Shown: positions 6,431 to 63,756, counted from the first letter of the stretch. The stretch is 64,000 nucleotides of DNA from Minisyncoccota bacterium (GCA_041389045.1 JAWKSQ010000001.1:267063-331062); one strand, 5' to 3'. Numbers and translations: made by a program. The notes: generated from the sequence alone by a model not told the origin.

Positions 6431-7556
6431 TCCAAGTTTTGATCCAGGCTCAGATTCTACTGCAAAAAGTAGTAGTAAAAGTCAAAATTCACTAATAGTA
6501 TTTATTGGGACGACTATAATATTAATGTTGATGGGTTGGTCTTTTTACATTAGTTTAGTTGATAGAAGTAAATTATATGATGAAATCGTGATGGTAACCG
6601 ATCAACATCACATATCGACTAAAGATTCGGAACAGGAAAGTATTGCCGATCAAAAAGTAACTGCTGATTTGGACGATGTAGTTATTTGGCAGGACAACAG
6701 TCGTTGGAAAAAAATAACTAACCAAAAATTTGGTTACCAATATGATATCCCCGATTTAGAGGTGGCTAATTTATTTAGAGTGGAGACGCATTTTTCAACT
6801 AGTAGTCTATCCGATTATGTTAATTCGTTGTGGTATATCAATAGTACGGAAATTAATGAATATATTCCAAATAAATCTGTTTCAGACATTGAAAGAAGAG
6901 ATATAAATTCGCAAGAATCCTATAGCTTTACGGTTACTGGTTCATTTTCCTTTAGTGAGTTGAGCGGATATATAATATCATCCCCAAAAAATAAGTTTGT
7001 TTTTTTAGAGACAGAATCTGGAGTTAAAATTATAGTTAACTACCCGGTAGAAAAAAGCGAACTATTTGACATGGCGTTAAGTACTTTTATAATCGACAGT
7101 AGTCTTATTCCAGAAAAATTATTACCTGGTTTTTGGGAAGACGTTGTGTCAGATAATTTGTCTTTTTCTGTACCCACCAATATTTTTCAGTTAGTAGAAG
7201 CTAGCATTGAGCGAGTCACTCATTCCACCTCGTCTATAAAATCATATTCATTCAATAATCCAGACTATGGCAATTTAAGTGTAAACATTAGTGGCGAAAA
7301 TTTTGATAAAGAAAGTTTTGATGAAAGGAATAGGGATAGGTTGGTTTTTTTGGGTGAGGTTTTTTTGGCTGATAGATATTGGTACCGCTACAAGGGAGGG
7401 GATGCAGGCTGTGTTTGGGGATTAACCCGAACAGGCTTTGATGGAGGCTTAGTAGAGGTTACATTTTCTGCTTGCTATGACGATGTTTACCCTATCTATG
7501 AAGAAGAAGATTTAGTTAATGAAGTTATTAATTCGTTTAAATTCATGGGTATATGA
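6411..7556 (+). CDS. membrane-anchored hypothetical protein
   Basis: 381-aa intact ORF; N-terminal TM (LIVFIGTTIILMLMGWSFYISLV); no motif recognised; sits between murD and murC. Confidence 0.55.
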   Translation: MKMKQNNPSFDPGSDSTAKSSSKSQNSLIVFIGTTIILMLMGWSFYISLVDRSKLYDEIVMVTDQHHISTKDSEQESIADQKVTADLDDVVIWQDNSRWKKITNQKFGYQYDIPDLEVANLFRVETHFSTSSLSDYVNSLWYINSTEINEYIPNKSVSDIERRDINSQESYSFTVTGSFSFSELSGYIISSPKNKFVFLETESGVKIIVNYPVEKSELFDMALSTFIIDSSLIPEKLLPGFWEDVVSDNLSFSVPTNIFQLVEASIERVTHSTSSIKSYSFNNPDYGNLSVNISGENFDKESFDERNRDRLVFLGEVFLADRYWYRYKGGDAGCVWGLTRTGFDGGLVEVTFSACYDDVYPIYEEEDLVNEVINSFKFMGI

Positions 7557-8857
7557 AACCAAATAATACTAAAAAAGTTCATTTCATAGGGATTGGCGGT
7601 ATTGGCATCAGTGCCTTGGCTCGGCATTATTTGCATGAGGGTTTTGTGGTACAGGGTTCCGATAGTAACAAGACAAGCAATAGTGAAAAATTGGAGGCGG
7701 TTGGAGTAAAGGTGTTTTATGAACAGACATCGGCTCACATAAAAGATGATATTGATTTAATTATTTATAGTGACGGTGTAACAGAAAAGACGGCTGGTTG
7801 GAGCGGAACTGCAGCTGCTCGCGCTTCAGGGTATCAAAACAATGAGTTACTTTGAGGCCTTAGCACAAATTGCCAACGAATATTATTTGATAGCAGTGGC
7901 AGGTACGCATGGTAAGACTACCACTACTGCCATGCTGGCGGACATCTTTGAAGAGGCCAGTTATGACCCAACGGTAGTAGTAGGTTCTTTACGCAGTAAA
8001 ACCGGTAGTAACTACCGTGCCGGGCAGAGTAAATATTTCATAGTAAAGCGGATGAATACCTGAGGCACTTTTTATATTTTGTACCAGATGTACTTTGATA
8101 AATAATCTTGATTTTGATCACCCGGACTATTTTAAGGATCTAGCTGACGTGCAATCGGCCTTTAAAGAATTGGTAGCTAAAGTACCAGAGGATGGGTTTA
8201 TTGTCGCTAACACTAAAGATCCAAAGGTAGTACCCGTACTAGAAGTCGGCCTTGGCTACAGTAGTTGATTATTCGCAAAATTTAAACCTAACACGTCCGT
8301 TACTGCAACCAGGTCTTCACAATAGATTAAATGCGGCCGGTGCAGAGACGGTGGCAAAAGCAGTTGGTATTAAGTCTAATTATATTGAAACAGCCCTCAC
8401 TAATTTGTCGGTACCGCCAGACGTTTTGAATACAAAGGGAAGTTAATGGAGCTTTAGTCTATGATGATTATTCTCACAACCCGCAAAAGGTGGCAGCAGC
8501 AATTGCTGGAGCGAGGGAGGTTGCACCAGATCGTAAATTAACTGTAGTGTTTCAACCTCATACTTATTCGCGCACCCACGAATTATTTGGTGAGTTTGCT
8601 ACCGCACTTTCTACCGCCGATAAAGTGTTGCTACTGCCAATCTACGCCGCTCGAGAAGAAAATACTTCTGGTGTCACTAGTGAAAAGTTAGTCGAAGCAA
8701 TTAATGTCCTGGGGCAAAAAGCCGAAGCTTTGCCAGACTTCACTACCGTCATAGAACAAATAAAAGGATCGGTAACTGAAAAAGATTTGGTACTAGTAAT
8801 GGGAGCGGGGATGTAACTAAAATTGCGACAGAACTGACTAATAAATTGTACAATTGA
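7553..8857 (+). pseudogene. murC: UDP-N-acetylmuramate--L-alanine ligase, broken by about 7 one-nt frameshifts (possibly assembly artefacts)
   Basis: MurC-like pieces in shifting frames: VHFIGIGGIGISALA, IAVAGTHGKTTTTAM, ADEYLRHFLYFVPDVL, LINNLDFDHPDYF, QPGLHNRLNAAGA, TVVFQPHTYSRT, VLVMGAG-DVTKIATELTNKLYN; several breaks lie in short homopolymers. Confidence 0.85.
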
Positions 8858-9144: not shown

Positions 9145-9399
9145 ATGGCCTACACGATTGTTATTACAAAGAAAGCAAAACGTGATATTGATAATTTAGA
9201 ACCCATAATAAAGAACCGACTTGGTAAAAAACTAAAACAAGTTATGGCCATGGATGATATTTCACAGTTGTCAGACAACTTGTGGATAGTCGGATTGGTT
9301 CCTACAGACTACGAGTAGGTGATTATCGGATACTCTTTGATTTGGAAAAAATCAGATCATAATTTTGCGAGTCAGCATCGTAAGGACGTATATAAATAA
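9145..9399 (+). pseudogene. RelE/ParE-family toxin, multiply frameshifted
   Basis: MAYTIVITKKAKRDIDNLEP..., then YRLRVGDYRILFDLEK and HRKDVYK* appear in other frames. Confidence 0.6.
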
Positions 9400-9402
9400 T
9401 TT

Positions 9403-21888: not shown

Positions 21889-21951
21889 AGAATACTAGGT
21901 ATTATACTGCATATTTAAAGTGGTGCTAAATTACTTGATTCTTATAAAGCT

Positions 21952-29057: not shown

Positions 29058-29060
29058 GTG

Positions 29061-31035: not shown

Positions 31036-31044
31036 ACATTTTTG

Positions 31045-32822: not shown

Positions 32823-32824
32823 CG

Positions 32825-33445: not shown

Positions 33446-33577
33446 AAATTTGCAGTTGTGTAAAAGTCATATTATAAATTGATTCATTAGTTTCCCATTA
33501 CCCGCGAGGTTATGCAAGTATATAAGTTTCATTATCCTATAACATAATTCTAAGAAGTCAGTTACATAACTAAACTT

Positions 33578-34909
33578 TCACTTTTTATGAAGAGAATGCA
33601 AATCATCTCTGAATTGTCTTAAAAATAATAACCCAAGTGGGATTACAGAGTAAGAGAATAGAGTGGAAATAGCGGCTCCCACGGCCCCATAGCGAGGAAT
33701 CATAAATAGATTTAAAGAGATGTTAATCAACGCACCGGTCAGGGTAAGATATAGGTGAATTCGGCCTTTGTTTTCAGTAATAAGATACTGTTGTACCAAT
33801 ATACCCAGTATTCCAACAGCTCCCGACCAGATATAAATTTGAAGTAATATGATGGATTCAATAAATTTTTCACCAAATAAGATTAAAATAATTGGACGGG
33901 CGAATATGAAAACAAACAACGTGACAGCTAAAGTGATTGCCATTACAAGTATCGTTAGGGCTCTGTACCTCTGCAGGTATGAAAGACGACTGATTTTTTT
34001 AGCACTGACTAAGGCAGGGAAGACAGAGCTAATGATAAGGGCAGGGATAAAGCTCCAAATGTTGGATATTCTAACCGCGACATCATACAAGCCAACCGAG
34101 GTTGAGCCTAGGTATTGTTGTAGCATTACTTGGTCAATTCGCGCATAGATATAACTAAAAAAGCCAGCAAACAAAAAAGGCCACGAGTCGTTCATTAGTT
34201 GTTTAAAGATAGACCACTCAAACTTCCACTCTAAGGGGTTTTGCTTAAACTTGTTTATATAAATGTATAGTGACCAAACAGTAGATATCAGAGCTTCAAT
34301 TACTAATAGTCCGGCAAAGAATAGAACACCTTTATCAAAAACTATCACTAAAATTTTTAAAATTGGAATAAAAAAAGCAATAAAGATTGTGGCGTGTGAG
34401 GTATACCGTGCCTGGACCTTGGCTTGGAATAGTATGGCAATCGTACCGAGTGGGTTGATTAAAAAAGTAAAAGCGGTAATGGCAACTAATTGGGTAAGTA
34501 AGGTTTCATTATCAATTGATAAGGAAAGTACAATGGATAAAACAAAAGCAAAAAAACCAAAAATGAATTTTGCTAAGACGGCGGTACCGATAAGCCCATG
34601 TTCCTTTTCAGGTTTTGCAGTTAAGTCCCGATAGAGTATTTGGTCTATCCCTAGAGAGGCAAAGACCGACAATATTGATACAAAACTTTGGGCATAACTA
34701 ATTTTCCCTAGGTTTTCTGGGCCAAGGTATCTAGCAACCATAGCCATGGTGAGAAAAGAAGTTACAAAAGTGGCCCCTCTAGCTGCAAATAGCCACCCTG
34801 TATTTTTGAAATATTTTTTAAAGCCATCTTTATTCCAATCGCTAACAAGTCGCTCATAAAGCCAGTTAGGTAGTAGCTTAAGCGCAGCGGAGTTTAAGAG
34901 TTGATACAT
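33578..34909 (-). CDS. Wzx-type (MOP superfamily) polysaccharide flippase
   Basis: 443 aa, about 12 TM segments, typical N-terminal KNTGWLFAARGATFVTSFL. Confidence 0.7.
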   Translation of the reverse strand: MYQLLNSAALKLLPNWLYERLVSDWNKDGFKKYFKNTGWLFAARGATFVTSFLTMAMVARYLGPENLGKISYAQSFVSILSVFASLGIDQILYRDLTAKPEKEHGLIGTAVLAKFIFGFFAFVLSIVLSLSIDNETLLTQLVAITAFTFLINPLGTIAILFQAKVQARYTSHATIFIAFFIPILKILVIVFDKGVLFFAGLLVIEALISTVWSLYIYINKFKQNPLEWKFEWSIFKQLMNDSWPFLFAGFFSYIYARIDQVMLQQYLGSTSVGLYDVAVRISNIWSFIPALIISSVFPALVSAKKISRLSYLQRYRALTILVMAITLAVTLFVFIFARPIILILFGEKFIESIILLQIYIWSGAVGILGILVQQYLITENKGRIHLYLTLTGALINISLNLFMIPRYGAVGAAISTLFSYSVIPLGLLFLRQFRDDLHSLHKK

Positions 34910-35118
34910 AAAGTGTATAGTATATAAATAGTACTATACAGATTAAATTTAAGTTACTAAAACCTAGACCAATGGGCATAAGGGCTTTTGTAATACTTCT
35001 AGTATACCCAATAAAATTTAAGTAAAAGTGTTTACTATATAGCCCACCATTAGGTTTGACTTTTAGGTAAATTATGTGATAATGCAGGTTGGGTTCATTC
35101 AACTATTAGGAGGTTGCT

Positions 35119-35718
35119 GTGTTTATTACTAAACAAAGTCCAGCGAAAGCAGTGGTGAAACGGCTTGGTGATGTGGCCGATGTTGATTCCTCAATCCGAG
35201 AGATTGCCATCAAGTTGAAGGAGAGGATTTTGGAGAGGTCAGACACACCACCGGCAGTACGCCACTATTTGAGCGGTGGAGCTGAGGCAGCGACCCGATA
35301 CTACTTGGACAATGATCTAAGTTCCGGCAATCTTCCTTCGGGGAGACAGGAACGGCTGCAGTTTGATGAGTTCAGGCGGTTATCGGCAGTAGCGGAGGAA
35401 CCACTACTGTCGGCTGGTTTTTCGAAGGTGGACATAAATGTCTATCAGACGATTTATCTCCTCACTCACCCGAACTACCGACGGCAAGCCAAGGACCTGT
35501 CTGCGCTTCTGGTTCATAACCATGAGAACCATTTCCTTATCCTGCTTGAGACCTCGTGTTATAGCTACGGACTCCGCAGGGAAGGAGATTACCTTGGGGA
35601 TGCAATATCGGTTGCTCAACACTATGTCAGTCTTAGTCAGGCGTCAAAGTCGCCGGAAAAGGCAAAGAAAAGAAAGACGTCTTGGCTGAGAAAGTGGTTT
35701 CCTTACCTGTTTCAATAA
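35119..35718 (+). CDS. hypothetical protein, compositionally atypical (G+C-rich, GTG start, strong SD)
   Basis: 199-aa ORF; AGGAGG 6 nt upstream of GTG; opposite strand to the surrounding glycan operon; followed by a terminator. Confidence 0.5.
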   Translation: MFITKQSPAKAVVKRLGDVADVDSSIREIAIKLKERILERSDTPPAVRHYLSGGAEAATRYYLDNDLSSGNLPSGRQERLQFDEFRRLSAVAEEPLLSAGFSKVDINVYQTIYLLTHPNYRRQAKDLSALLVHNHENHFLILLETSCYSYGLRREGDYLGDAISVAQHYVSLSQASKSPEKAKKRKTSWLRKWFPYLFQ

Positions 35719-35737
35719 GGGACCCTCAACAAACGAA

Positions 35738-35770
35738 AAGGCCAGCCACACTCCCGTGTGTCTGGCCTTT
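35738..35770. terminator. bidirectional terminator between convergent 35119 CDS and fcl
   Basis: AAAGGCCAGCCACAC-TCCC-GTGTGTCTGGCCTTT (one mismatch). Confidence 0.6.
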
Positions 35771-35837
35771 CATAATTTAAATTTAAGGTAGCTTATTTGA
35801 GACTTTGAATAGTGGTAGGCTGCAATCTCTCAGCAAT

Positions 35838-36764
35838 TTAGAGGGAATTAAGGTACCACTCATAAGTACTCTTTATACCTTCTTTAAGAGAGATCTGGTG
35901 TTTGAAACCAAGCGAGTGGAGTTTTGATACATCGAGGAGTTTACGTGGTGTGCCGTCCGGTTTTTCCGTGTCCCATTTTATTTCGCCCTCAAATCCGACG
36001 ACTTCTTTGATGGTTTCGGCTAGTTCCTTAATCGTACAGTCTTCACCAGTGCCGATATTTACAATACCCGCGTCATTGTAGGTCTCCATTAGGTGTAGGC
36101 AGGCTGCTGCCAGATCATCAACATGCAAAAATTCACGCATGGGTGAACCAGAACCCCAGAGAGTGACGTTTGGTGCACTAGTTTCTTTGGCTTCATGAAA
36201 ACGACGGATGAGAGCCGGTAGGACATGTGAAGTTTCGAGATCAAAGTTGTCATTTGGTCCATAAAGATTGGTGGGCATGACACTGATGAAATTGCTCCCA
36301 TATTGTCGCCGATAACTTTGACACATGATGATACCAGCGATCTTAGCAATGGCGTAGGCATCGTTAGTTGGTTCTAGAGCACCAGTCAATAAGTATTCCT
36401 CTTTCATTGGCTGTGGGGCCAATTTAGGATAGATACAAGAACTGCCAAGAAATAGAAGTTTTTTGACTTTATTATTATATGACTCATTAATTACATTTGT
36501 TTGCACTTGGAGATTTTCGTAAATAAAGTCTGCGGGGTATGTTTTATTAGCCATAATACCACCAACTTTAGCAGCAGCTAAAAAAACAGATTCTGGTTTT
36601 TCATTCGCAAAAAAGTCTGAGACGTCTTTTTGATTAAGAAGGTTTAACTCCTCTCTAGTTTTAGTAATTATGTTAAAAAAGCCTTGAGAGGTAAGAGAGC
36701 GAACTATAGCAGAGCCGACAAGTCCTCGATGCCCAGCAACATATATCTTGGATGTTTTTTGCAT
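35838..36764 (-). CDS. fcl: GDP-L-fucose synthase
   Basis: 308 aa; [22 protein letters not shown], next to gmd. Confidence 0.85.
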
Positions 36765-36901
36765 ATAAGAAATAGAACTGAATTAGTTTAATAATTGTAA
36801 CATCCTTAGTTGGTAAAAGAGAGTTTAAAGAAATTACTTGATTTTAAATGTAATCTATGTTATAATAATCAAGTGAGCTAATGTTCAACTAAGGAGTTCT
36901 T

Positions 36902-37051
36902 ATGAATGTAGGTAAGGTTATGTTCTGGGGGTTTATTGGCTGGTGGCTAATCCCTGGAGTCATGATTGTTCAGTCAATAGAAGATTATGTCTTCTACGGA
37001 AATGAAACAATTGAAGAAAGGAAGACTCGCCACAATTTTGAGAAATTGTGA
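36902..37051 (+). CDS. possible 49-aa membrane peptide (below ORF-track cutoff)
   Basis: MNVGKVMFWGFIGWWLIPGVMIVQSIEDYVFYGNETIEERKTRHNFEKL; AAGGAG 5 nt upstream. Confidence 0.3.
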   Translation: MNVGKVMFWGFIGWWLIPGVMIVQSIEDYVFYGNETIEERKTRHNFEKL

Positions 37052-37104
37052 TAAGCACAGACCCAGACCTTGGACAGCTATGTCCGAGGTCTATTTTTAG
37101 ACTA

Positions 37105-38160
37105 TCAATATAGAATTTGTTTTCCTGACCTTAATAGTTCAAAGTCAGCTTTGGTCATTCGTTTAGCCAAATCAGCGAATTTTATTTGTGCTTCCCAGCC
37201 GAGCTTCTCTTTGGCTTTGCTTGGGTCACCTAAAAGGAGATCAACTTCAGTCGGACGGAAATATTTGGGATTAATTTTAATAATCGGGTTACAGGTTTTC
37301 TTATCAATACCAACTTCATTGATTCCTTCTCCTTCCCAAGCAAGCTTAATGTCTAACTCTTCGCAAGCGGCTTCAATAAATTCTCGTACAGTATGAGTTT
37401 CACCGGTGGCGATGACAAAATCTTCAGCGGTATCATGCTGAAGCATGCGCCACATCGCGTCAACATATTCAGGCGCGTAGCCCCAGTCACGTTTGGCGTC
37501 CATATTACCTAGCTCTAAGATATCTTGTTGTCCAAGTTTTATTTTGGATAGTCCTAGCGTAATTTTTCTGGTCACAAAATTATAACCGCGTCTCTCACTT
37601 TCATGATTAAATAGTATTCCGTTACAGGCAAACATATTGTAAGCCTCACGATAGTTTTTTATAATCCAAAAGCTATAGAGTTTTGCCACTCCATAGGGAC
37701 TACGTGGATAGAAAGGAGTGTTTTCCGTTTGTGGCGTTTCTTGAACTAAGCCGTAAAGCTCTGACGTCGAAGCTTGGTAGAATTTAGTTTTGTTACTCAG
37801 GCCTTGCTTCTTGATAGCTTCAAGAATGGTCAGAGTTCCAAGCGCATCTGTCTCGGCGGTTAGTTCCGGTAAGTCAAAAGAAATACGAACATGACTTTGG
37901 GCAGCTAGATTATAGACCTCATCGGGTTCGATGTCTCGAATCAAAGAGGAAATGTTGGTTGTGTCTGTTAAATCACCATAGTGGAGAAATAGGGTTTTGT
38001 CGTGCACTTCAGGATTATTAAAAAGATGATTAATCCTGGCCGTCCTAATTGAACTAGATGGTCTTTGTACACCATGTACCTCGTAGCCCTTCTCTAGGAG
38101 TAATTCTGCTAAATAAGATCCATCTTGTCCCGTGATGCCGGTGATTAACGCTTTTTTCAT
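37105..38160 (-). CDS. gmd: GDP-mannose 4,6-dehydratase
   Basis: 351 aa; [39 protein letters not shown]. Confidence 0.9.
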
Positions 38161-39085: not shown

Positions 39086-39125
39086 TTGACACATATACTA
39101 CAAAGTATATACTTTGTAGTATATG
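39086..39125 (+). promoter_or_regulatory. promoter plus palindromic operator of the DinJ/YafQ-like pair
   Basis: TTGACA (39086-39091) - 16 nt - TATACT (39108-39113); 34-bp perfect palindrome CATATACTACAAAGTAT/ATACTTTGTAGTATATG (39092-39125) that includes the ATG. Confidence 0.6.
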
Positions 39126-39392
39126 AATACTGTAATTAGTGTGAAGGTTGATAAGGCCACCAAAGAAGCTGCTCAGGAGGTGGCTAAAAGTATGGGTTTG
39201 AACCTCAGTACTTTACTGAACTCTTATTTGAAACAGGTTATTGCCACTAGGCGAGTTGAGTTGTATGCCCCGGAACCAATGACACCAAAGTTAGAAAAGA
39301 CTTTGAGGCGGGTTAAAAAAGAGATGGCCGAATCTAAAGACCGGAAATTCTTTACGACCGTTGATGACTTAATGACAGACTTAAATAGTTAG
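39123..39392 (+). CDS. RelB/DinJ-family antitoxin
   Basis: 89 aa; ISVKVDKATKEAAQEVAKSMGLNLSTLLNSYLKQV (ribbon-helix-helix type). Confidence 0.7.
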   Translation: MNTVISVKVDKATKEAAQEVAKSMGLNLSTLLNSYLKQVIATRRVELYAPEPMTPKLEKTLRRVKKEMAESKDRKFFTTVDDLMTDLNS

Positions 39393-39395
39393 TTT

Positions 39396-39653
39396 ATGCT
39401 TGTTGTTACGTCTCCTACTTTTGATAAACAATTTAAAAAACTTTCTCATAAAGTCCAACAACAATTTAAAGCCAGATTATCACTTTGGTTGGAAAATTCT
39501 GAACACCCCACTTTACGAGTACACCCACTTAAGGGTAGCTTAAGCGGGTATTGGAGTATGAATATAAGTGGTGACTATATAGTGATATATTATTTTCAAG
39601 GCGACGAAACAGTCGTTTTGGCTTTAATCGGTACGCATAGTCAGTTGTATTAA
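39396..39653 (+). CDS. RelE/YafQ-superfamily mRNA-interferase toxin
   Basis: 85 aa; HPLKGSLSGYWSMNISGDYIVIYYF...LIGTHSQLY. Confidence 0.7.
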   Translation: MLVVTSPTFDKQFKKLSHKVQQQFKARLSLWLENSEHPTLRVHPLKGSLSGYWSMNISGDYIVIYYFQGDETVVLALIGTHSQLY

Positions 39654-39739
39654 CAGCAGGTAACCAAATTTTAGACAAGACAGTTCTAAGAGTGTGTGTT
39701 TATTATAAATTCGAATTATTTGCTGAGGGTTTTATTTTT

Positions 39740-40587
39740 ATGCTGGAATACAAAATTGGTTTTATTGGGCAGGGGTTTATCGGAAAGAACATGGCGGATG
39801 ATTTTGTGGAGCGTGGCTACGAGGTGGTACGGTTTGCGCTCGAGGAGAAGTATATCGGCAATCGCGAAGTGATTGCCGATTGTGACTTTGTTTTTATTGC
39901 AGTCCCTACTCCAACCACTCCACAGGGTTTTGATATTTCAGTAGTGGAAAGTGTTTTACCCCTAATTGGTAAGGGAAGACAGCGGTAATCAAGTCAACCA
40001 TTTTGCCTGGTACTGCCAAGGCCTTGCAAGCAAAGTTTCCTGATATTAATGTGATTCATTCGCCAGAGTTTTTGCGTGAACTACATGCTCGTGATGATGC
40101 TCGCCATCCACCGCGAACGATTATTGGTCTGCCAGAAAAAAATACGAAATACCAGGCTCTGGCTGATGAGTTACTGACAATCTTACCAAAGTCACCGTAC
40201 CAATTAGTCTGTACTGCAGAGGAAGCTGAATTAATTAAGTATGGCGGTAACTGCTTCTTAACTTTGAAGTTAGTGTATATGAATTTACTTTATGATTTAG
40301 CTGAGGCAACTGGAGCAGACTATAACGTGGTGGCGGAAGCAGTGGGGGCTGATAGTCGAATCGGTAGTAGTCATATGCAGGTAGTATCAGAAGACGGAAA
40401 GCGCGGAGCAGGTGGACACTGTTTTCCTAAGGACTTAGCGGCTCTGCGTGAGGTCTATGAAAAATCAATGGAAGTTAGTATGGGAACTGACTTACTCAAA
40501 GCGATTGAAAATAAAAACAACGAACTCTTGCGTAGTACAGACAAGGATCTTGATTTACTAAAGGAAATTTATGGTAGCCATGTCTAA
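39740..40587 (+). pseudogene. short UDP-glucose/GDP-mannose dehydrogenase-family protein (no C-terminal UDP-binding domain), one frameshift near 39978
   Basis: KIGFIGQGFIGKNMA (Rossmann), FIAVPTPT, IGKGKTAVIKSTILPGT restored by adding one A, GGHCFPKDL catalytic Cys. Confidence 0.7.
40507..40575 (+). repeat. current ugd 3' end, upstream copy of an imperfect direct repeat
   Basis: core TTGCGTAGTACAGACAAGGA (40528-40547) identical to 41732-41751; flanks about 75-80 percent similar by eye. Confidence 0.75.
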
Positions 40588-48702: not shown

Positions 48703-49036
48703 ATGAAATTAATTACTAAATTAGCATTGACCACCCTGACCTTGCTGGTGGTAGCCAGATATCTTCCTGGTATAAGCATTGACGGTTGGTACCCAGCTTT
48801 AATTGCGGCAGTTATTCTCGGCCTCCTTAACCTTGTTTGTTAGGCCGATTCTCATCTTGCTTACTTTACCAATTACTATCTTAACGATCGGATTGTTCGT
48901 CATAATTATTAACGCTATGTTGTTTGCCTTTGCCGCCTCGTTTATAGAAGGCTTTACAGTAACTAGTTTTGGCTACGCTGTTTTAGGTTCTCTGATAGTT
49001 AGTATGGTCAGTACTGTAGCTAATCGTTACCTATAA
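48703..49036 (+). pseudogene. DUF360 / phage-holin-4-family small membrane protein, one frameshift near 48838
   Basis: MKLITKLALTTLTLLVVARYLPGISIDGWYPALIAAVILGLLNL then VRPILILLTLPITILTIGLFVIIINA... in ORF 48803..49036. Confidence 0.6.
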
Positions 49037-49128: not shown

Positions 49129-49313
49129 TTTAACTAATAACTACTTTGATAAGTAATCCGTAAATAGGAATAAGCAATTAGTTCTTAGAATGTTTCTTCA
49201 CTCAAATTTAGATTAAAGCTTGGTAAGCACATGAATGATGAGTAGCTGAGAAGGTCCCGGGAATAGTGCTGATCTCCTGTACAAGGGTCATCATCCGTGA
49301 TATCAATGTAGCC

Positions 49314-50270
49314 ATGTTTGTCGATAGTCTAACCTTACATATGAAAGCCGGCGACGGGGGTGACGGAGTCACGCGTTGGAGACATGAAAAGTTTCGACCA
49401 ATGGCTGGTCCTGCTGGCGGTAATGGGGGTCGCGGTGGCGACGTTTTTTTGCGTGCTGTCCGGGACGTTAACTTACTGGCTAAGTACACTGGCGACAAAA
49501 ACTTCGAAGCACAGTCAGGTGAAGACGGTCAAGATAAGAGTAAGTTTGGTAAGAACGGTGATGATCTCTACGTAGACGTACCGGTGGGCTCAATTGTCAC
49601 TGACCTGACCCGTGAACGAGTTTACGAGTTACTAGAGGAGGGGTTAGAAATAAAAATTCTTAAGGTGGAAGTGGCGGTGTCGGCAACGAACAGTTCAAGA
49701 CAGCAACCAATCGCTCCCCAGAGGAATCGACAGAAGGACGGGATGGTGAGGAAGGAGACTTTTTAGTCGAGTTGTCACTCGTAGTAGATATCGGTTTAGT
49801 GGGAATGCCGAACGCCGGCAAGTCTACATTACTGAATTCTTTAACCAACGCTCAAGCAAAAGTCGGAGCTTACCCGTTTACCACTGTTGAACCGAACTTA
49901 GGTGACCTCTATGGGTACACTATTGCTGATGTGCCAGGGTTAATCAGTGGAGCGGCTTCCAGGTAAAGGGCTCGGACATACGTTTCTCCGACACATTTCT
50001 CGTACAAAAATGATCCTCCACTTAGTCTCGCTTGAGACAGAGGAGTCGATTAATCAGTATTATACCATTCGAGAGGAGCTGTCCCAGTATGCAAAAGAAT
50101 TAGAGGATAAGGAAGAATGGATTATTTTTACAAAAATGGACCTTACAAATCAAGACTATATTGATAGGGTGGTTAGTGATGTTGACAAACTTGAGAAACG
50201 TGTGTTTGTTATCTCTACTGAAACGGGTGATGGAGTAAAAGAATTGCGGATGCGCTTGTTAAGCACCTAA
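49314..50270 (+). pseudogene. obg: GTPase Obg, at least two frameshifts (about 49662 and 49948)
   Basis: MFVDSLTLHMKAGDGGDGV...GGNGGRGGDV; [14 protein letters not shown] restored by one G; [15 protein letters not shown]; [15 protein letters not shown]. Confidence 0.85.
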
Positions 50271-53789: not shown

Positions 53790-55640
53790 ATGAATTCTTT
53801 ACTAGCACAAAAGAAAATCAGCACTCTTCTCACCGGAGCTTTTGGGTTATTAATTGTTCTCGCTTTAAATACCAACTTGGCTTTGGCTCAGGCTAATCCG
53901 CAAATTAATTACCAAGGCAAGCTCACTAACGGCAGTGGAGTCGCTGTACCAGACGGTACATACAACATGCGTTTCTGGATTTTGACTTCACCAAGTATCG
54001 CCACCAGCTCAGCGCTCTGGACTGAGTCTCTTACTGCTTCCGACACCAAAGTTCAAGTGACGAATGGTCTCTTCTCAGTGATGCTTGGTTCTAGTACACC
54101 ACTAACTTCCGTCGACTGGAATCAAACTCTCTACCTCGGCGTGGAGATCGGTGGTACTTCTACACCAGCTTGGGATGGGGAAATGAGTCCACGAAAGATT
54201 CTCGGGACTGTTCCGGCCGCTTTTGTGGCTAATTACGCAAACGTTGCTGGTAGTGCTAGCACCTCAGACAGTGCTACAACCGCTGTGAGTGCCAGTAGCT
54301 CAGATACGCTTGCTGGTATTGCTTCATCCTCTTTCCTTCGTTCTGACGAGGCCGATACTATGGAAGCTACCTCAACTTCACCGCTACTGTCACTGATCCA
54401 AAACGGTACCGGGAAGTTACTGAGTCTCTTCCGGGGACTCACAGAGGTCTTCACTGTTGGAAACAACGGCCATGTTGGAGTGGGTACTAGTACCCCGGGT
54501 TCATTGTTCTCAGTGCAAGGGACAGCTGGCTCAAGCACACCACTCTTCACGGTTGCTTCGAGTACTGGCACAGCATTAATGGGCATACTCAGTAATGGTA
54601 ATGTCGGTATTGGTACTAACTCAGCTGGAGAAAAACTGGAAGTAGTTGGTAACATCATTTCCAAGGGAACTGAGTGGACACTTAGGACTAGTACGACAAC
54701 AAACTCTTGGCACTCTGTCACCTACGGTAACGGTCTTTTTGTAGCGGTTGCTTTTACTGGCGGTGTCATGACTTCACCAGATGGAATAAATTGGACGCCA
54801 AGAACTGCGGCAGCTGCAAATCAATGGACTTCCATCACCTACGGCAATGGTATCTTCGTGGCGGTTTCAAATAATGGTACAGACCGCGTCATGACTTCAC
54901 CAGATGGAATAAATTGGACTAGTAGGAAAAGTATCACCTCTAATCGATTATGGTCGGCGGTCACTTACGGTAACGGTCTTTTTGTAGCGGTTGAGACTGG
55001 CGCTGCCGGTTCTGATCAAGTTATGACATCTCCAGATGGTATTACATGGACTAACAGATCAGCTACAGGTGCAGCATGGTCATCTATTGCTTATGGTAAT
55101 GGACTCTTTGTAGCTGTATCTTCCGATGGTAGTGGCACAATGACATCTGTCGACGGTATAGTTTGGAATTATCCTTCCTCTCCTACTTCAAATGCCTGGT
55201 CTGCTATTACCTACGGTAACGGTCTCTTTGTGACTGTTGCCTCAACCGGTTCTGGTGATCGAGTCATGATTTCACCAGATGGTGTAACTTGGGCAACAAG
55301 CACTAGCGTTGCAGATAACTCTTGGCACTCTGTCACCTACGGCAACGGCCTGTTTGTGGCAGTTTCCAATGATGGTTCTGGTAATCGTGTCATGACTTCA
55401 CCGGATGGAATTACTTGGAAGACTAGATCAACGAGTGGTATTGATAAAAGTTATCTTGGAGTAACGTATGGCAGTGGCATCTTTGTAGCTGTAGCTTCTA
55501 CTGGTTCTGGTCAAGACGTCATGACTTCCGGCAAGGTAGACTACTCAGTTCTTGCTCACAACAACATCTACCAAGGTGGCATGTCAGTCTTTGGTAATTT
55601 ACGGTCGGTTCATCTACCAATAGTAATCCTTTCTCGATAG
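53790..55640 (+). CDS. secreted fibre/adhesin: N-terminal fibre domain + 7-bladed beta-propeller (supermodule 1); the 3' end is set by a 1-nt indel
   Basis: Signal peptide; INYQGKLTNGSGVAVPDGTYNMRF; 7 repeats of W.S(V/I)TYGNGLFVAV...VMTSPDGI(N/T)WT; ORF stops 40 nt after a base missing relative to the copy at 60871-60880. Confidence 0.7.
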   Translation: MNSLLAQKKISTLLTGAFGLLIVLALNTNLALAQANPQINYQGKLTNGSGVAVPDGTYNMRFWILTSPSIATSSALWTESLTASDTKVQVTNGLFSVMLGSSTPLTSVDWNQTLYLGVEIGGTSTPAWDGEMSPRKILGTVPAAFVANYANVAGSASTSDSATTAVSASSSDTLAGIASSSFLRSDEADTMEATSTSPLLSLIQNGTGKLLSLFRGLTEVFTVGNNGHVGVGTSTPGSLFSVQGTAGSSTPLFTVASSTGTALMGILSNGNVGIGTNSAGEKLEVVGNIISKGTEWTLRTSTTTNSWHSVTYGNGLFVAVAFTGGVMTSPDGINWTPRTAAAANQWTSITYGNGIFVAVSNNGTDRVMTSPDGINWTSRKSITSNRLWSAVTYGNGLFVAVETGAAGSDQVMTSPDGITWTNRSATGAAWSSIAYGNGLFVAVSSDGSGTMTSVDGIVWNYPSSPTSNAWSAITYGNGLFVTVASTGSGDRVMISPDGVTWATSTSVADNSWHSVTYGNGLFVAVSNDGSGNRVMTSPDGITWKTRSTSGIDKSYLGVTYGSGIFVAVASTGSGQDVMTSGKVDYSVLAHNNIYQGGMSVFGNLRSVHLPIVILSR

Positions 55641-55648
55641 CATCAACG
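55530..55648 (+). repeat. junction repeat J, copy 1
   Basis: 119 nt versus 120 nt at 60801-60920: one substitution and one 1-nt indel; encodes GKVDYSVLAHNNIYQGGMSVFGNLRVGSSTNSNPFSIAS. Confidence 0.85.
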
Positions 55649-56612
55649 CTGGCATAACTACTTCTCCATTACATTGCTTCCATCTTCGGCGCATCATCTC
55701 CAAACCAAACCGCTACCACCAATCCGACTTTCCATTGCTTCTAGTACTGGTTCTTCACTTCCACAGCCTAACTGTAAATCAAGCTTGGTAAGCTCTTAGG
55801 AATTCAGGCAATCTACCAGGTACACAACTTTGTAATTCACTTTTTCTAACAGTTCAATGTTTTAGGAACTGGTTCGGCTACATCGTTACTGACAACTCAT
55901 TCAAGTACAGGTTTTCAATATTTAATGGCTTACCAAATGGATCTGCAGCTGGGATCTTAATACCACCGGTTCAAATAACTCTTTCATAGGAGTTCAGGCC
56001 GGCATCAACACTACTGGCTCTGACAACATATCGATTGGTAAAGACGCTTTATATTTAAATTTAAGTAACGCCAGCATTGCCACTCGCTTTCCACCTTATA
56101 TAAACTATCGGAGTAACAATGGTTCAATTGGGCTACACTAATACTTGGAATAGATTTGCTAACGCAGTTGCCGGATATGGTGCTAGTCCATCGTCGGTGG
56201 AACGCCCTCAATTGGTAACTCATAATGTGGTATAGGCACCACTACCCCAGTTCAACACTCACTATCCGTGGTACGGCTGGAAACAATCTACTTTATTGCT
56301 TCGAGTACGGGAATCACTATTTTGCAAAATGGTAACGTCGGAGGTTTTTAACCAGTGCTAACACTTTTGACTATGTTGCAAAATGGTAACGTCGGAGTGG
56401 GTAAATTCTTTATTCTCACTAGCCCTTCTACTGGACGGTTGGTTTTTATCTGGGTGAGTTGACGGAAACTCTGGAAATTTATGGGGTGGTCGAGAACTTA
56501 GTGACGGATCAGAGATGTCAATTAATTGGTGGACTCGTAATCTTTATGACAAATTAACCAGTGTTGAGTTGATAACGGTAATGTTGGTATCGGTCCACCA
56601 TCTGTTCTGTAG
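55641..56612 (+). pseudogene. heavily degraded beta-helix/linker part of supermodule 1
   Basis: Recognisably homologous to 57960-59000 and 60920-61760 (e.g. ATCCGTGGTACGGCTGGAAACAAT) but with many small gaps and stops in all frames. Confidence 0.6.
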
Positions 56613-58966
56613 TAGGTGACGCTCGTATTACCGGCGCACTTCGCGATAGTGCTAATAGCGCTGGTACATCCGGCTACGTCCTTCAGACCACCGGTAGTGG
56701 TACTCAGTGGGTCGCCACCTCATCCCTTGGTATAACCGGTTCCGCCGGAGTTCTGTGCGGAGCAGTTGGTTTGCGACTCAGATGGCTATCAGCTACTACG
56801 CTTGGTACTTCCACTCTACTAGACAACGGTCTAGTCGCTGGTATCAACGCTACTTCATCTAGCTATTCTTTCAACGTCCAAGGTGCTTCAGGTATCAATC
56901 CATTCCGTGTCGCATCCTCAACCGGGACATCCTTGTTATCTGTTTTAAATAATGGTGAGGTGGAAGTTCTTGGGCAAGTAATTTCTAAAGGTCTAAGTTG
57001 GACCAATATCACCAGTTATCCTGTAGGTAATAGCAGTTGGAGCTCCATTACCTATGGTAATGGACGCTTTGTAGCGGTTGGTGATAATGGTACCGATCTA
57101 ATTATGCATTCAAGTGATGGAATAAATTGGGCAACCACCACTGCTTTTGGTGCAGATGATGATTGGACCTCAGTCACCTACGGCAACGGCCTCTTTGTTG
57201 CAGTAGCTAGTGATGGGACCGATATAGTTATGACTTCCCCTGATGGAATTAATTGGACCGCCCGTTCTGCTGTGGGTAATAATGATGATTGGTGGGATGT
57301 TACCTACGGCAACGGTCTCTTCGTGGCGGTAGGTAGTTCTGGAGATTATGTCATGACTTCCCCTGATGGTATTAATTGGACCGCTCGCTCTGCTGCTGGT
57401 AATAATGATTATTGGACATCAATCACCTATGGCGATGGTCTCTTCGTGGCGGTAGGTAGGTCTGGAGATCGAGTCATGACTTCCCCTGATGGTATTAATT
57501 GGACCGCTCGCTCTGCTGCTGGTAACGATGATTGGTGGAGTTCTGTCACCTACGGCAATGGTCTCTTCGTGGCGGTAGGTAGTTTTGGTGATCGAGTCAT
57601 GACTTCCCCTGATGGTATTAATTGGACCGCTCGCTCTGCGACAAGTGATAGTTGGTCAGGGGTCACTTACGGGGATGGTTTATTTGTTGCTGTGAGTAAC
57701 TATGGCAGTGACTCAATCATGACTTCCCTGATGGTATCAATTGGACTGTCCGAAATACTAATGGAGATGGTTTAAGAGATGTTATATTTGCTAATGGAAC
57801 TTTTGTGTCTGTAGGTGACTATGTAGGCTTAATCTCCGGCAAAGCCGACTACAGTGTCCTCGCCCACAACAACATCTACCAAGGTGGTATGTCAGTCTTT
57901 GGTAATCTTACCGTATCGGTTCATCTACCAACGTAATCCTTTCTCGATAGCATCAACTACCGGTTCAAATCTATTCTCTATTACCAACAGTGGTCGAGCG
58001 ATCTTTGGTACTACCACCGCCACAACGCCAACATCTTCCTTAACGGTGGCTCAGCGACCACAAAACGTTGCAGATTCAAACTCCATTGCGATTGGTAATG
58101 AAGCCCTTACATATACCTCAACCACCTCTACATCACTTCGAAACATTGCACTCGGTTACCAAGCACTTTATGGTTCTTCTACAGCACTAATGACTGGAGC
58201 TGATAACTTCGCAGTCGGATATCAAGCAGGATATGCAAACACCACAGGGTCGTTTAACACTTTCATTGGCTCTGGAGCAGGTAGAGCTAATACTGCCGGT
58301 GCAGGTAACTCATTTATTGGTCTTCAGGCTGGATATGCAAACACTACAGGTTCTAATAATTTTTTCGTTGGTAGTTTATCAGGTGATGTTAATACTACTG
58401 GATCAAGTAATATGTTCGTAGGTTATGATGCTGGTGGAAGTAATACTACTGGATCAAGTAATTTGTTTGTAGGATATCGATCTGGTTTAAGCAACACAAC
58501 AGGATCAGACAACTTTGCAGTTGGTTATGAATCTGCACGTAATAATTCTACTGGTTTAAATAATATAGCTATAGGTAATAGTGCCTTGTTTTATAATACT
58601 ACCGGCTCAGATAATATAGCTCTTGGAGCTACGTCTTTAGTGTTTAACACTACCGGTAACGCCAACATCGCCTTTGGTACTTCCACCCTTTATAACACTA
58701 CCGGCTCTAATAACATCGGTCTTGGTCGCTTCGCTGGATATACTAATACCTCAGGTGGAAGCAACCTCTACCTCGGCGCCTTCGCTGACGCAGCTGCTGG
58801 TACATATAGTTCTTCCACCGCCATCGGTGCTGGCTCCATCGTCGGTCGCTCGAACGCCCTCATCTTGGGTGGTACCGGGAACTCATACGTCAACGTTGGT
58901 ATCGGCACTACCACCCCAGCTTCGACTCTCACTATCCGTGGTACCCGCTGGAAACAATCTTCTTAA
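56613..58966 (+). pseudogene. fibre supermodule 2 (stalk, 7-bladed propeller, 17-residue NTTG beta-helix repeats) with about 4 frameshifts
   Basis: ITGALRDSANSAGTSGYVLQTTGSGTQWVATSSLG; ORFs 56771..57775 and 57854..58966; break at 57722 is CCCC to CCC in ACTTCCCCTGATGG. Confidence 0.65.
57104..57730 (+). repeat. 123-bp tandem repeats (propeller blades), central copies near-identical
   Basis: GT(C/T)ATGACTTCCCCTGATGG recurs at 57227, 57350, 57473, 57596 and (with 1-nt loss) about 57717. Confidence 0.85.
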
Positions 58967-60851
58967 TATCGCTTCTAGTACCGGTGTATCACTATTTTCA
59001 ATTCTTCAAAATGTTGGGGATTGGGACCAGTGCGCCGGTAAATTAACTGTCTGGTGATACAAATTTAATCGGACAGATTTGTTTTATGTAGCCGCGTTTT
59101 CACAGACAACTTCTTGGTAGATAACTTAAATAATAAATTTTTGTCAGATGATTGGTAATGGGTAATACTGGTAATTTAAATGTTAGTAATCAATATGTTA
59201 ATAATACTAAATTGGTTGTATTTGGGGATATTGGCTTCTAGAGGTTATGGAACACAACAGATAACTTTTTGGTAGATAATACCAATGATACTAATGGTCA
59301 GAACCTAGCTATCCATGCCGGGGTAATGCCGGTTATCGATTTTGACTCGGAGAAAAATGGTGGTGATTTATATTTAAGTGCTGGTTTAAGGGAACGGAAT
59401 TGAGTTCCAATGGTAATGTGATTTTGGTTATAATGGTAATTCATTTGTTGGTAATATCGGCATTGCTACCACCACTCCATCTAGCAAACTCACCGTCGCA
59501 GGCGATACATATATAGGTGGCTCACTTAGTGTCTCTGGTGCCTTAAAAGATTCCTCTAACGCCTCCGGTACTGCTGGCTATGTTCTTCAGACCACCGGTT
59601 CAGGCACTCAGTGGGTCGCCACTTCATCACTCGGCTTTGGTTCCAGCCTTTCTGGTGGAGCGGTTGGTTTTGCGACCAGATGGCTCTCAGCTACTACGCT
59701 TGGTACTTCCACTCTACTAGACAACGGTCTAGTCTCTGGTATTAATGCTACTTCATCTAGTTACTCTTTAACGTTCAAGGTAGATCCGGGGTTAATCCAT
59801 TTAATGTGGCTTCGAGTACTGGAGCTTCGTTATTAGCTGTTTTAATAACGGCAACATATCGAACTGAGACAGCGGGCGAGAGACTAGAAGTCGTTGGTAA
59901 CATTATTTCTAAAGGAACTGAGTGGACCTTGAGGACGAGTACGACGACGAATCAGTGAAAGATGTCACCTATGGTAATAGGTTGTTTGTACTAGAGGGAC
60001 CTATTCTGCAACCAATCAATTTTATGACTTCACGATGGTATTACATGGACATCGCGTACAAGTACCAGTTAATAATGTATGGCAGTCATAACTTACGGAA
60101 ATGGCCTCTTTGTGGCAGTGTCTAGTGAATCAAATGGTTCGATCGATAACCGTGTCGTAACTTCACCTGACGGAATAAATTGGACGGCGTTACGCTCAGC
60201 TCCAGATCTAATATGGAATACTGTAACTTACGGCAACGGTTTGTTTGTGGCAGTGGCTGGTAGCTCAGGTGATTATGTTATGACCTCACCAGACGGTATT
60301 ACTTGGACCGGTCGAAGTGCAGCTGGTAATAATGACTATTGGAGAGAAGTAACTTACGGTAACGGACTATTTGTAGCAGTTGTATCCAATGATGGTATGA
60401 TAATTACGTTATGACCTCACCTGACGGTATTACTTGGACACCTAGGTCCGTCACACTCCAATCCTTGGACATCAGTGACTTATGGCAACGGCCTGTTTGT
60501 TGCTGTATCTACTTCTGTTCTAGTAATTGTGAATAACCTCACCAAACGGAATAAACTTGGACATCGAGAACGAGTCCAACCTCGATATGGACATCACCTT
60601 ACGGCAACGGTCTGTTTGTGGCAGTAGGTAATGATGGTTCAGGGTAACAGTTGTAATGACCTCACCAGACGGTGTTGGTTGGACAATTCGTTTGATGCTT
60701 GTGGTAATGATACTTTTATGCTTACCTACGGCAACGGTACGTTTTGTTGCAGTTGAATTTTTCAGACGGTGAAAGGATGTTTTTCCTCCGGTTTTAGGCC
60801 GGCAAGGTAGACTACTCAGTTCTTGCTCACAACAACATCTACCAAGGTGGT
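58967..60851 (+). pseudogene. degraded linker, stalk and propeller of supermodule 3
   Basis: 59460-59790 is homologous to 56590-56890 (47 nt identical at 59689-59735 versus 56790-56836); propeller blades are readable only in short ORFs (59922.., 60079..60414); many stops. Confidence 0.6.
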
Positions 60852-60920
60852 ATGTCAGTCTTTGGTAATTTACGAGTCGGTTCATCTACCAATAGTAATC
60901 CTTTCTCGATAGCATCAACG
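60801..60920 (+). repeat. junction repeat J, copy 3
   Basis: see 55530-55648; a more diverged copy lies at 57839-57960. Confidence 0.85.
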
Positions 60921-63756
60921 ACTGGCTCTAACTTATTCTCCATTACCAATAATGGTCGGGCTATCTTCGGCGCATCATCTACTGCATCTAACATTTTCTT
61001 AAACGGTGGTTCTGCTACGACAAATGTCGCAGACTCAAATTCCATTGCGATTGGTAATGGTGCACTGACTTATACTTCAGTCTCCGCTACTGACTTAAAC
61101 AACATTGCTCTCGGTCACCAAGCTCTTTATGGTTCTTCGACTGCACTCATGACTGGTACGAATAACTTTGCGGCCGGATATCAAGCAGGTGGTTCAAATA
61201 CCACTGGTAGCGGTAACTCGTTTATTGGCTATTGGGCAGGTTATCTAAATACTACTGGTTCATTCAACTCTTTTGATGGTTTTGGCGCCGGATTAGCTAA
61301 TACCACCGGGTCATCAAATATCTTTACAGGATATAATACTGGTTTGAATAATATTTCTGGTTCAGACAATACTGCACTTGGCGCAACTGCTTTATATACA
61401 AATGTTACAGGTAACAATAACATTGCTTTAGGTAACAGTACTTTATTTAATTCAACTGGAAATAATAATATTGCCTTAGGTGCCTATGCTGGATACGGTA
61501 ACACTTCAGGCAATAACAATTTATTCCTTGGAGCCTTTGCTAATGCTTCAGCTGGCACTTACTCTACATCTACTGCTATCGGTGCTGGCTCTATCGTCGG
61601 TCGCTCGAACGCTCTTATTTTGGGTGGAACAGGGAATAATTATGTGAACGTTGGTATTGGTACCACCACCCCAGCTTCGACTCTCACTATCCGTGGCACT
61701 GCCGGCAACAACCTTTTAAATATTGCTTCGAGTACTGGCGCCTCACTACTCACTCTCTTCCAGGATGGTAATCTTTCTCTTGGTACCACCAGCTCAAACG
61801 GTCTCATCAACATGGAACGTTTATCCTTCACCGGTAATGGCACTGTGGCTGGTATTAACCAATACCTCACTTTCGCTAATAGTACCGCTAGTGCTGTCCA
61901 GTACGCTAACCAGACCTACTTAAGTAACTCTAGTACAGCGACCACCACTCTAGTCGGTAACATTATCCGCCTAGCAGACAGCACCACCTTCGGTAACACT
62001 GTACGAGGCTTTGAAGTCCAAACCGAAAGAGGAAACAATACTCTAGGTGAAAACACCGCCATCTCGGGCTTTGCTCGTACCTTTGGTGTACGAGGTGTGA
62101 CTGAAGGCGATGCTGGCGGTACCTTCGAGCCAGCTGGAGTCTATGGTGAGTCAAGAGGTTCAACTCAAGGTAACGCTATCCGTGGTTACTCATCAACCAT
62201 TACCACTTCTTCTCTACTTAAACTCTTCCAAGACACCTCCACCTTTACTGGTACTGGACTTCTCATGAACTTCGGTAACGCTGGTGGCTCTTTCTCTTCT
62301 ACTACCGCTTCTCGCTTCATTGACCTTAAGAACGCTGGTACTTCTATCTACACCGTGGGTGCCTACGGTATGCTCACTATTGGTAACGGTACTACTAATA
62401 ACGCCGGTCTGCAGATTGGCTACGGTGGTATCTGTGTCGATAATGATGGATCTTGTACCGCCTCGACCACCGGTCGTATTACCTCAGTGTCTTCAGCGAC
62501 TGGTAACTCTGACTTAGCGGAAATGTACTTCTCAAATGAAGACCTGGTCCCTGGTGAAATTGTCTACCTGAAGAGTGGTCTTTCTGTCGGTCGGGCTAAT
62601 GCTTCTAGCTCAGATAAGGTTCTTGGCGTCGTTTCTACCTTACCAGGTCTTCTCATGGGACAAGACGACGTTTCACTAAATAGTGGGGAAGAAGGACATC
62701 CAATTGCTCTTAAGGGACGTGTGCCAGTTAGGCTCTCTAATGAAAATGGTGACATTAAAGCTGGGGATGAACTTATGCTGTCTTCTATTCCTGGTGTGGC
62801 TATGAAGGCTTCTTCTACTGGCATCGTAGTTGGTCGCGCCCTAGAAGACTTCAATCCTGGACGCGCCTACAGTGAGACCTATATCAATCAATTCGGTGAA
62901 AGTATCATCGTCCCAGAATACACGCCAATTGACCGGGTGAATGACGCTCGCCTTGATGACGGTTGTTATTATGGTGGTGGTAATGCTTCGGGGAGAAGAA
63001 CCCTGTGTTCCACTCATTTCGACTACCACAGAAGCTAGATACGAAGAAGCCGATGCCCTAGCTTTGCAAACGGCTAAGGATAAAGCCTTGCGCACCCTCG
63101 CTAAGACTAAGAGTGAGACGATAGCTTTAAATAGTGAAGAAACCGTCAAGGTTGGCCAAATCGTGATGTTTGTTGATCTTAAGTACCGTTATCTCGATGA
63201 GAAGGGAATGAATATGTTAGCGGCCCTGTTAGCTACTGCCAGTACTACTGACACGACTAATAATAGTGTAGTAGAGACAGTATGGGAGAGACTAGTCAAT
63301 CTAGCTAATAACTTTGTGGATGGGGTACTGTCTATCTTCAAGCTTAAGGCGGAGAAGGTGGAGACAAGCGAACTCTGTGTGGACGGGGTCTGTATCAATG
63401 CTAGCGACCTACGCCAGCTACTAAATAATACTGGTTCCACAAACCAGTCGAATACAGGTAACCAAGGTGGAGGAAGTACGCTAGAAACTCCAGTGGAAGA
63501 GGAAAATGATGTTCCACCAGTTGTATCTGACACCGGTACCACCACCGCGACCGGTACAGAACCAGTGGTTGACGAGGCAGAGTCTGAGGAGGATGGAGAT
63601 CTTGAGTCAGAACAGGTAGAGAATACTGAAACAGAAGACGTAGAAGTAACAAATGATGAGGTAGTAGTAGAGGAGACGACAGAGGAAGAGTCAGCTAATA
63701 ATGAAGTAAATCAAACAGAGACAGGTACAGCTACCGATACAACAATTACTAGCTAA
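60852..63756 (+). pseudogene. fibre supermodule 3 beta-helix plus unique about 690-aa C-terminal region with acidic tail; one frameshift near 62990
   Basis: ORFs 60852..63038 and 62941..63756 join as ...GGGNASGEEPCVPLISTTTEARYEE...; contains NSDLAEMY...VLGVVSTLPGLLMG...ALKGRVPVRLSNENGDIKAGDELMLSSIPGVAMKA. Confidence 0.65.

Follow-up and report, generated by a model that had tools for sequence, protein, structure and literature searches.

Organization of the fibre gene

The DNA examined here, referred to below as the window, is a 64,000-nt stretch of contig JAWKSQ010000001.1 (267063-331062) from the Minisyncoccota bacterium assembly GCA_041389045.1. Between positions 53790 and 63756 of the window lies a series of open reading frames (ORFs) that most likely represent one conceptual giant gene on the plus strand, approximately 9,967 nt in length (~3,322 aa), for a modular surface fibre. 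At least 40 frameshifts cut this gene into many ORFs; nonetheless, three-frame reading and frameshift-aware alignments indicate that coding continuity is kept at every module junction. The contig belongs to a metagenome-assembled genome (MAG) of an uncultured Paceibacterota organism (Patescibacteria). In its deposited annotation, the locus is given not as one gene but as consecutive hypothetical proteins (R3B53_01885 to R3B53_01915). ORF 53790..55640 is R3B53_01885, and the product of ORF 60852..63038 is identical to R3B53_01915 (MEZ4195133.1, 728 aa).

The conceptual protein begins with a signal-like hydrophobic N-terminus and a stalk, which lead into propeller 0 (seven blades), a linker (GKVDYSVLAHNNIYQGGMSVFGNL) and fibre module 1. 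A GYVLQTTGSGTQWVATSSLG junction is followed by propeller 1 and a second linker, beyond which lie fibre module 2 and one further module. After a second GYVLQTTGSGTQWVATSSLG-type junction come propeller 2 and a third linker; fibre module 3 then leads to a conserved C-terminal domain, and the protein closes with an acidic tail.

Clean and damaged stretches, all on the plus strand, succeed one another along this order. The N-terminal part and propeller 0 (53790..55527) required 0 frame corrections; the blades, each of ~41 aa with the pattern W..VTYGNGLFVAV...VMTSPDGI.WT, match the Pfam EPTP and DUF6242 repeats, and every difference in blade length is a multiple of 3. The linker repeat R1 (GKVDYSVLAHNNIYQGGMSVFGNLRVGSSTNSNPFSIAST) occupies 55528..55648 and was delimited, as was its intact counterpart R2 (60799..60920), from repeat families and alignment. 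Fibre module 1 (55599..56620) is the first lesion-dense patch (patch 1). The GYVLQTTGSGTQWVATSSLG junction and the six blades of propeller 1 (56621..57724; ORF 56771..57775) are again clean, with 0 corrections and blade indels that are multiples of 3 throughout, the last blade excepted. Frameshift-aware alignment places five frameshifts in a mini-patch at 57725..58063, which spans a third linker copy (57836-57911), and beyond it fibre module 2 (58064..58949), with its NTTGS.N repeats, is clean and shares 76-80% amino acid identity with fibre module 3. The second damaged region consists of patch 2a (58950..59450), a mostly clean junction reading GNIGIATTTPSSKLTVAGD...GYVLQTTGSGTQWVATSSLG...IASSTG (59451..59860) with a single frameshift at ~59765, and patch 2b (59861..60870), which is propeller 2. 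Two of the seven blades of propeller 2 are clean (ORF 60079..60414). What follows, fibre module 3 with the conserved C-terminal domain (60871..62987), is clean and forms part of ORF 60852..63038.

A single frameshift at 62988..62991 (plus strand) cuts short even the deposited 728-aa protein; homologues read through this point as ...CYYGGG.A.GEEPCVPL.... The true C-terminal continuation (62992..63756, plus strand, within ORF 62941..63756) is alignable to homologues up to the acidic tail and, with one frameshift, shows 57-64% identity to homologues P0009 and P0004. It extends R3B53_01915 by ~255 aa, including a conserved ...ELCVDGVC... block and the acidic tail. As a candidate for a chaperone-like or autoproteolytic domain (Peptidase_G2 or S74), the C-terminal part matches Pfam Peptidase_G2 (IMC) weakly, at 20.1 bits (E = 4.6e-4) and under the 25-bit cut-off, and some homologues carry precomputed PF11962 or PF13884 assignments.

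Relatives of the fibre gene

The homologues P0005, P0022 and P0062 contain the succession propeller-linker-fibre-propeller-linker-fibre-C-terminal domain within a single ORF. More generally, single ORFs of relatives that are closed by the same C-terminal domain measure 2,166, 2,345, 2,498, 3,404, more than 2,956 and more than 3,456 aa, all in short-read MAGs. Because relatives hold the same modules in single ORFs, the paralogous segments of the present locus are modules of one gene. An earlier note on this DNA had compared the damaged segments with better preserved ones as their intact paralogues; the single-ORF homologues show these to be internal parts of the same gene.

Many proteins of Paceibacterota and Kaiserbacteria match the C-terminal domain at 56-75% identity (E = 0 to 1e-140). 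Giant tail-fibre-like surface proteins of the candidate phyla radiation (CPR) combine EPTP/DUF6242-type blades with a phage-like C-terminal domain, and the C-terminal domain of the present gene is homologous to theirs. Blade and linker motifs (AHNNIYQGG, GYVLQTTGSGTQWVATSSLG) and the alternation of modules are likewise common to those proteins and to this locus; the relatives, however, are open, whereas the fibre gene here is not. The underlying fibre gene is probably functional and belongs to a family that is widespread in Patescibacteria, within which it is unexceptional. Giant genes are described in 10.1101/2023.11.21.568195 as often hidden by assembly fragmentation.

A second assembly of the species was not found. 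When the proteins from the two ends of the gene were used as queries, no match of at least 90% was obtained besides the source. An encoding-contig index queried for exact copies of three window proteins contained no independent assembly, and the GTDB representative genomes lack the source genome, the closest relative among them being 72% identical.

Density of lesions in two segments

Two segments of the fibre gene, 55641-56612 and 58967-60851, carry most of its damage. In the interval 55641-56770 there is no ORF of at least 100 aa, and the sole complete ORF of that size in 58967-60851 is 60079..60414, with 111 aa. A reference-free lower bound on the number of lesions was defined as the fewest frame switches that yield a stop-free path on the plus strand. 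This bound is 7 in 55641-56612 and 15 in 58967-60851, and is 0 in every flanking module and in secA; at least 7 of the corrections are required in 58967-59650, most of them within patch 2a. Shuffles of the same composition require 11.5 and 23.5 switches for the two segments, respectively, and the real bounds therefore indicate that the segments are not far from a non-coding appearance.

A frameshift-aware protein-to-DNA aligner written for the analysis gave at least 12 shifts in 55581-56399 with fibre module 3 as the reference, and another frameshift lies at ~56595-56604. With propeller 0 as the reference, 13 shifts were reported in 59863-60900; the one called at 60876 stems from the propeller 0 reference ORF ending out of frame, and 12 frameshifts fall in 59956-60751. 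The density of shifts is thus ~14 per kb over ~0.8-0.9 kb in each segment. The true indel density is probably nearer 2-3% (20-30 per kb), because close pairs of indels escape detection in simulations. For patches 1 and 2a, a reference protein was sought in a set of 70-120 homologues and in 17 giant ORFs from relatives; the alignments obtained were only short or weak, with no close reference protein found for patch 2a, and the account of these two patches is based on the stop-free-path lower bound together with a motif count. A codon-usage Viterbi frameshift decoder was also tried and was dropped, as it recovered only 23-36% of simulated indels and its score ranged from 8 to 65 per kb among intact modules, so that noise and decay could not be told apart with it.

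On a minimal tally of 39 lesions, an even spread over the window predicts 1.7 in the two segments, and 22 were seen (Poisson P = 3e-17). The earlier note had described both segments as much denser in lesions than their surroundings, and this observation is borne out. It had also pointed to small gaps relative to the paralogous modules. The DNA identity between modules is only 67-80%, so that nucleotide gaps alone cannot be taken as lesions, and the valid evidence lies in the broken frames.

Damage within the fibre locus also extends beyond these two segments, with further lesions at 57725, 57910, 57933, 58025, 58063 and 62988. At 57725, a run of four C residues in ATGACTTC[C]CCTGATGG has shrunk to three (C4 to C3). 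The shifts at 58025 and 58063 form a compensating pair, 38 nt apart, which is concealed in the seemingly intact ORF 57854..58966. Between them twelve residues read TPTSSLTVAQRPQ, and the ANIFLNGGSATT of the family is present in another frame. This compensating pair implies that open ORFs of the assembly may still hold errors.

Linker repeats at the patch boundaries

Patch 1 starts directly after R1, and patch 2 stops directly before R2. Over 121 nt the two repeats differ by one mismatch and by one A that is missing from R1 after 55603 (70 of 71 positions are identical before this lesion), and they sit within modules that are otherwise 65-75% identical. The third linker copy at 57836-57911 is 82% identical to R1. 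As the earlier note had proposed, the missing A ends ORF 53790..55640; restoring it, however, gains only ~6 codons before the next lesion is reached. The short strings that were quoted in support of these comparisons are all present, but their positions had been given one base too low, the true ones being 55634, 60906, 55599 and 60870. When 53790-55598 is joined to 60870-63038, the result is a 1,325-codon ORF with no internal stop.

Conserved blocks of near identity, such as R1 and R2, flank variable sequence in this locus and do so likewise inside intact homologues, and hence the arrangement is not diagnostic. P0005, for example, has two near-identical linkers inside its intact ORF. The near-identical linkers in both genes suggest that the linker may undergo concerted evolution within genes of this kind. 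The results do not support an origin of the patches as a blend of repeats from the window itself, since only the first 50-100 nt after R1 resemble a blend with fibre module 3; the remainder of 55650-56620 is a distinct module.

Broken genes elsewhere in the window

Frameshifted genes are also found outside the fibre locus. The most informative of these is murC (7553..8836, plus strand), which is split into five ORFs by 7 frameshifts in 1,284 nt relative to an intact orthologue. It contains no in-frame stop and retains 73-74% amino acid identity to intact orthologues across its full length. Six of the seven shifts adjoin homopolymers, and the homopolymer shifts, when read against the orthologue, would correspond to n±1 changes in length such as A4 to A3, T4 to T3 and G5 to G4. 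The gene for the GTPase Obg (obg, 49266..50270, plus strand) is likewise divided among three ORFs (49266..49766, 49772..49966 and 49947..50270). Because a viable cell cannot have murC and obg multiply broken and yet highly conserved, an error process certainly acts on this contig.

Near murC, rsmI lies in two pieces (9447-9575 and 9595-10110), and a Phd/YefM-type antitoxin gene (8889-9140) is broken, its match to the 74-position Pfam profile ending at position 33. Taken with murC, these genes make 7553-10110 a 2.5-kb low-quality patch within housekeeping DNA. A holin-family gene is split into 48703..48843 and 48803..49036. A UDP-glucose/GDP-mannose dehydrogenase gene (39692-40587) is also split; it matches N-domain profile positions 72-109 and then positions 142-181 together with the central domain, which places a frameshift near 39990. 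Just upstream of the latter gene, 39123..39392 (89 aa) and 39396..39653 (85 aa) resemble an intact toxin-antitoxin pair.

The earlier note had described lesions outside the fibre locus as sparse, apart from one cluster at 7553-10110. Most of the window indeed has none, and secA, which was said to be free of frameshifts, needed 0 frame corrections; the obg, dehydrogenase and holin genes, however, are split outside that cluster. The long genes secA and gatB are open under translation table 11, and on the minus strand 17 kb of back-to-back ORFs (21094-38160) exhibit no visible fragmentation. The unfragmented state of this last region indicates that lesions gather in local patches and do not run through the whole contig. 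At the other end of the window there is a complete 16S rRNA gene (790-2248), with a tRNA gene on the opposite strand (4354-4427) ~2 kb downstream. No Rfam-detectable 23S rRNA gene was found downstream of the 16S rRNA gene within the window, and the rRNA genes appear to be unlinked.

Indel noise and sequence decay

Real decay is expected to bring several substitutions for each indel, roughly 5-10 to 1 in bacterial mutation spectra, and also to introduce nonsense codons and erode family motifs. Propeller 2 shows a different picture. After frame correction, it contains no stop codon and its identity is 0.64 to propeller 0 and 0.625 to propeller 1; these intact propellers share an identity of 0.62. 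When the intact propellers were given 2% indels only in simulation, the identity was 0.605 and 9.6 shifts were detected, whereas 2% indels combined with 10% substitutions lowered the identity to 0.49, and with 20% substitutions to 0.41. A hidden Markov model (HMM) of the blade, built solely from homologues outside the window, scored the corrected propeller 2 at 294-340 bits. Simulated sequences scored 336±17 bits with indels only, and 263±21, 205±24 and 103±16 bits with a further 5%, 10% and 20% substitutions, respectively. Propeller 2 thus agrees with the simulation of indels only; added substitutions of 10% or more are rejected, and 5% is only partly excluded.

The alignment of blade DNA gives a similar view of the individual lesions. 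None of the nine length differences among the 12 intact blades departs from a multiple of 3, as against 9 of 15 among the seven degraded blades. Moreover, the blade lesions fall within conserved blocks, for example ATGAC.TCACC.GA.GG. In patch 1, family motifs occur at 13.4 per kb over three frames, compared with 10.9-11.7 per kb in intact modules, and simulated 10% substitutions would lower the patch 1 density to 3.4 per kb; the motif make-up of the first third of the patch differs.

Origin of the lesions

The two segments are, in our judgement, most likely patches of assembly or consensus error inside a giant fibre gene, and not decaying copies or cassettes. Consensus breakdown was one of the two candidate processes named in the earlier note, and it fits the present results, as housekeeping genes are broken alike and propeller 2 lacks the matching substitutions and nonsense codons. 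The contig behaves as a long-read or hybrid assembly would, if the sequencing technology may be judged from its errors. It is clean for the most part, with some patches (murC, obg and others) that retain homopolymer length errors, and the fibre patches retain near raw-read noise, on the order of 1.5-3% small indels with few substitutions. Long-read assembly errors introduce frameshifts and premature stops that pseudogenize genes, as stated in PMC12007338.

The likeness to indel errors in long-read and hybrid assemblies is close in several respects. There too, frameshifts and premature stops break conserved single-copy genes into pieces that still match their orthologues at high identity, the lesions are patchy, and the dominance of homopolymer n±1 changes is shared by murC. 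A typical polished consensus, in contrast, has far fewer errors than the fibre patches, where the density is at least 14 per kb and many events lie off homopolymers. Since the fibre patches far exceed the density of a polished consensus, low coverage, mixed variants or gap-filling from few reads must be added to the explanation. The most likely local cause would be a repetitive and probably strain-variable gene that was left unpolished, or that was bridged by few or mixed long reads. The 121-nt repeat and some 20 similar blades could break a short-read graph and make short-read polishing ambiguous, and the assembly graph would be expected to branch exactly at R1 and R2, where the patches begin and end. 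A hypervariable surface gene may also be the place where co-existing strains differ, such that the consensus would derive from few or conflicting long reads. The suggestion in the earlier note that two different processes are at work gains limited support from the differences in lesion density and type; these differences are better explained by two grades of consensus quality, one unpolished but well covered (murC) and the other poorly covered or mixed (fibre), than by an artefact alongside a biological process.

Several observations weigh against an artefact. The fibre patches are ~2.6 times denser in lesions than murC (14.2 versus 5.5 per kb, P = 0.013), many of their lesions lie off homopolymers and 2-nt events are included. 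Given this higher density and the non-homopolymer events, homopolymer error of the ordinary kind does not suffice for the fibre patches, and a further cause is needed. Homopolymers are not depleted in the patches; runs of four or more are in fact slightly more frequent there. The 5-10:1 ratio of substitutions to indels in the decay test is an assumed general figure and was not derived from this genome. The motifs behind the density count for patch 1 were picked after the sequence had been viewed, and that count is supportive only. Patch 1 has an identity of 0.58 to fibre module 3, compared with 0.76-0.80 between fibre modules 2 and 3, and 10-20% substitutions would also fit this value. Finally, we infer the artefact from evidence internal to the sequence and not from reads.

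The divergence of patch 1, which exceeds that of the paralogous modules among themselves, is also an argument for genuine decay, in which the fibre gene or some of its modules would be a real pseudogene with frameshifts fixed after loss of function. Patch 1 moreover gives poor alignments with members of the family (a score of 126, compared with 524-610), and the gene in which the lesions cluster encodes a surface protein, is non-essential and probably evolves fast. Decay nevertheless seems unlikely, given that propeller 2 combines 12-13 frameshifts with no nonsense codon and with undiminished family-level conservation, and that substitutions at the 10% level or above are rejected for it. Clean modules of 0.9-2.1 kb alternate with dense patches, which is unexpected for neutral decay after a first inactivating lesion, and murC and obg on the same contig are multiply frameshifted though highly conserved. 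Alternatively, the degraded modules might be silent cassettes, that is, unexpressed donors from which recombination would generate variants of an expressed fibre gene. In Neisseria pilE/pilS, Borrelia vlsE/vls and Mycoplasma genitalium MgPa/MgPar, repeated and partly degraded copies of a surface protein gene lie near an intact one, as they do here, and short blocks of near identity in those systems are comparable to R1 and R2. The near identity of these repeats over 121 nt, in modules otherwise much less alike, would favour such a system, as would the uninterrupted short form of 1,325 codons that R1/R2 recombination could yield. The cassettes of the three known systems, however, lie outside the expressed gene and are usable in frame, whereas the segments here are internal to one gene, collinear with it and on the same strand, densely frameshifted and alternating with clean modules, and relatives have the same parts in a single ORF. 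Near-identical repeated linkers are found in intact homologues such as P0005 as well. With frameshifts every 35-80 nt, nearly any conversion tract would be inactivating; half of the interior is clean (56621-57724 and 58064-58949) and therefore not uniformly silent; and the locus has no excess of promoter-like sites (18, versus 18.8 in shuffles) or terminator-like sites (10, versus 8.8). Donor cassettes are therefore very unlikely, and the other candidate of the earlier note, decay or silent-cassette status of internal copies, does not agree with segments that are interrupted modules of one continuous gene.

A further possibility is that the lesions are real and that the 5.3-kb interior between the 121-nt linkers consists of degenerate modules, with R1/R2 recombination or module exchange switching between forms; this appears improbable. 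The number and direction of the shifts effectively exclude a peculiarity of decoding, by which an alternative genetic code or programmed frameshifting would read through the interruptions. Some Patescibacteria lineages recode UGA, but the interruptions here are changes of frame and not stops alone, with at least 25 shifts mapped in both directions; secA and gatB are open under the standard bacterial table, and no common slippery motif was seen at the shift sites. A tandem mis-assembly by haplotype duplication was considered and rejected, as the modules that follow R1 and precede R2 share only 57-64% amino acid identity with their would-be alleles and the order of modules is the same as in intact homologues.

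Implications for the surface fibre

If the two segments are consensus errors, then this assembly would mislead as to numbers of pseudogenes, gene lengths, paralogue families or silent cassettes, and the pseudogene-like appearance of several housekeeping genes on the contig would have the same technical cause. Were the lesions instead real and coupled to an R1/R2 switch, the population would contain a long form that is broken and a short one of ~1,325 codons that is open, and recombination would thus vary the cell-surface fibre of an episymbiont or turn it on and off. The damaged patches may also be informative as to the biology of the fibre: should they overlap modules that differ between strains, they would show at which points the fibre varies in the population.

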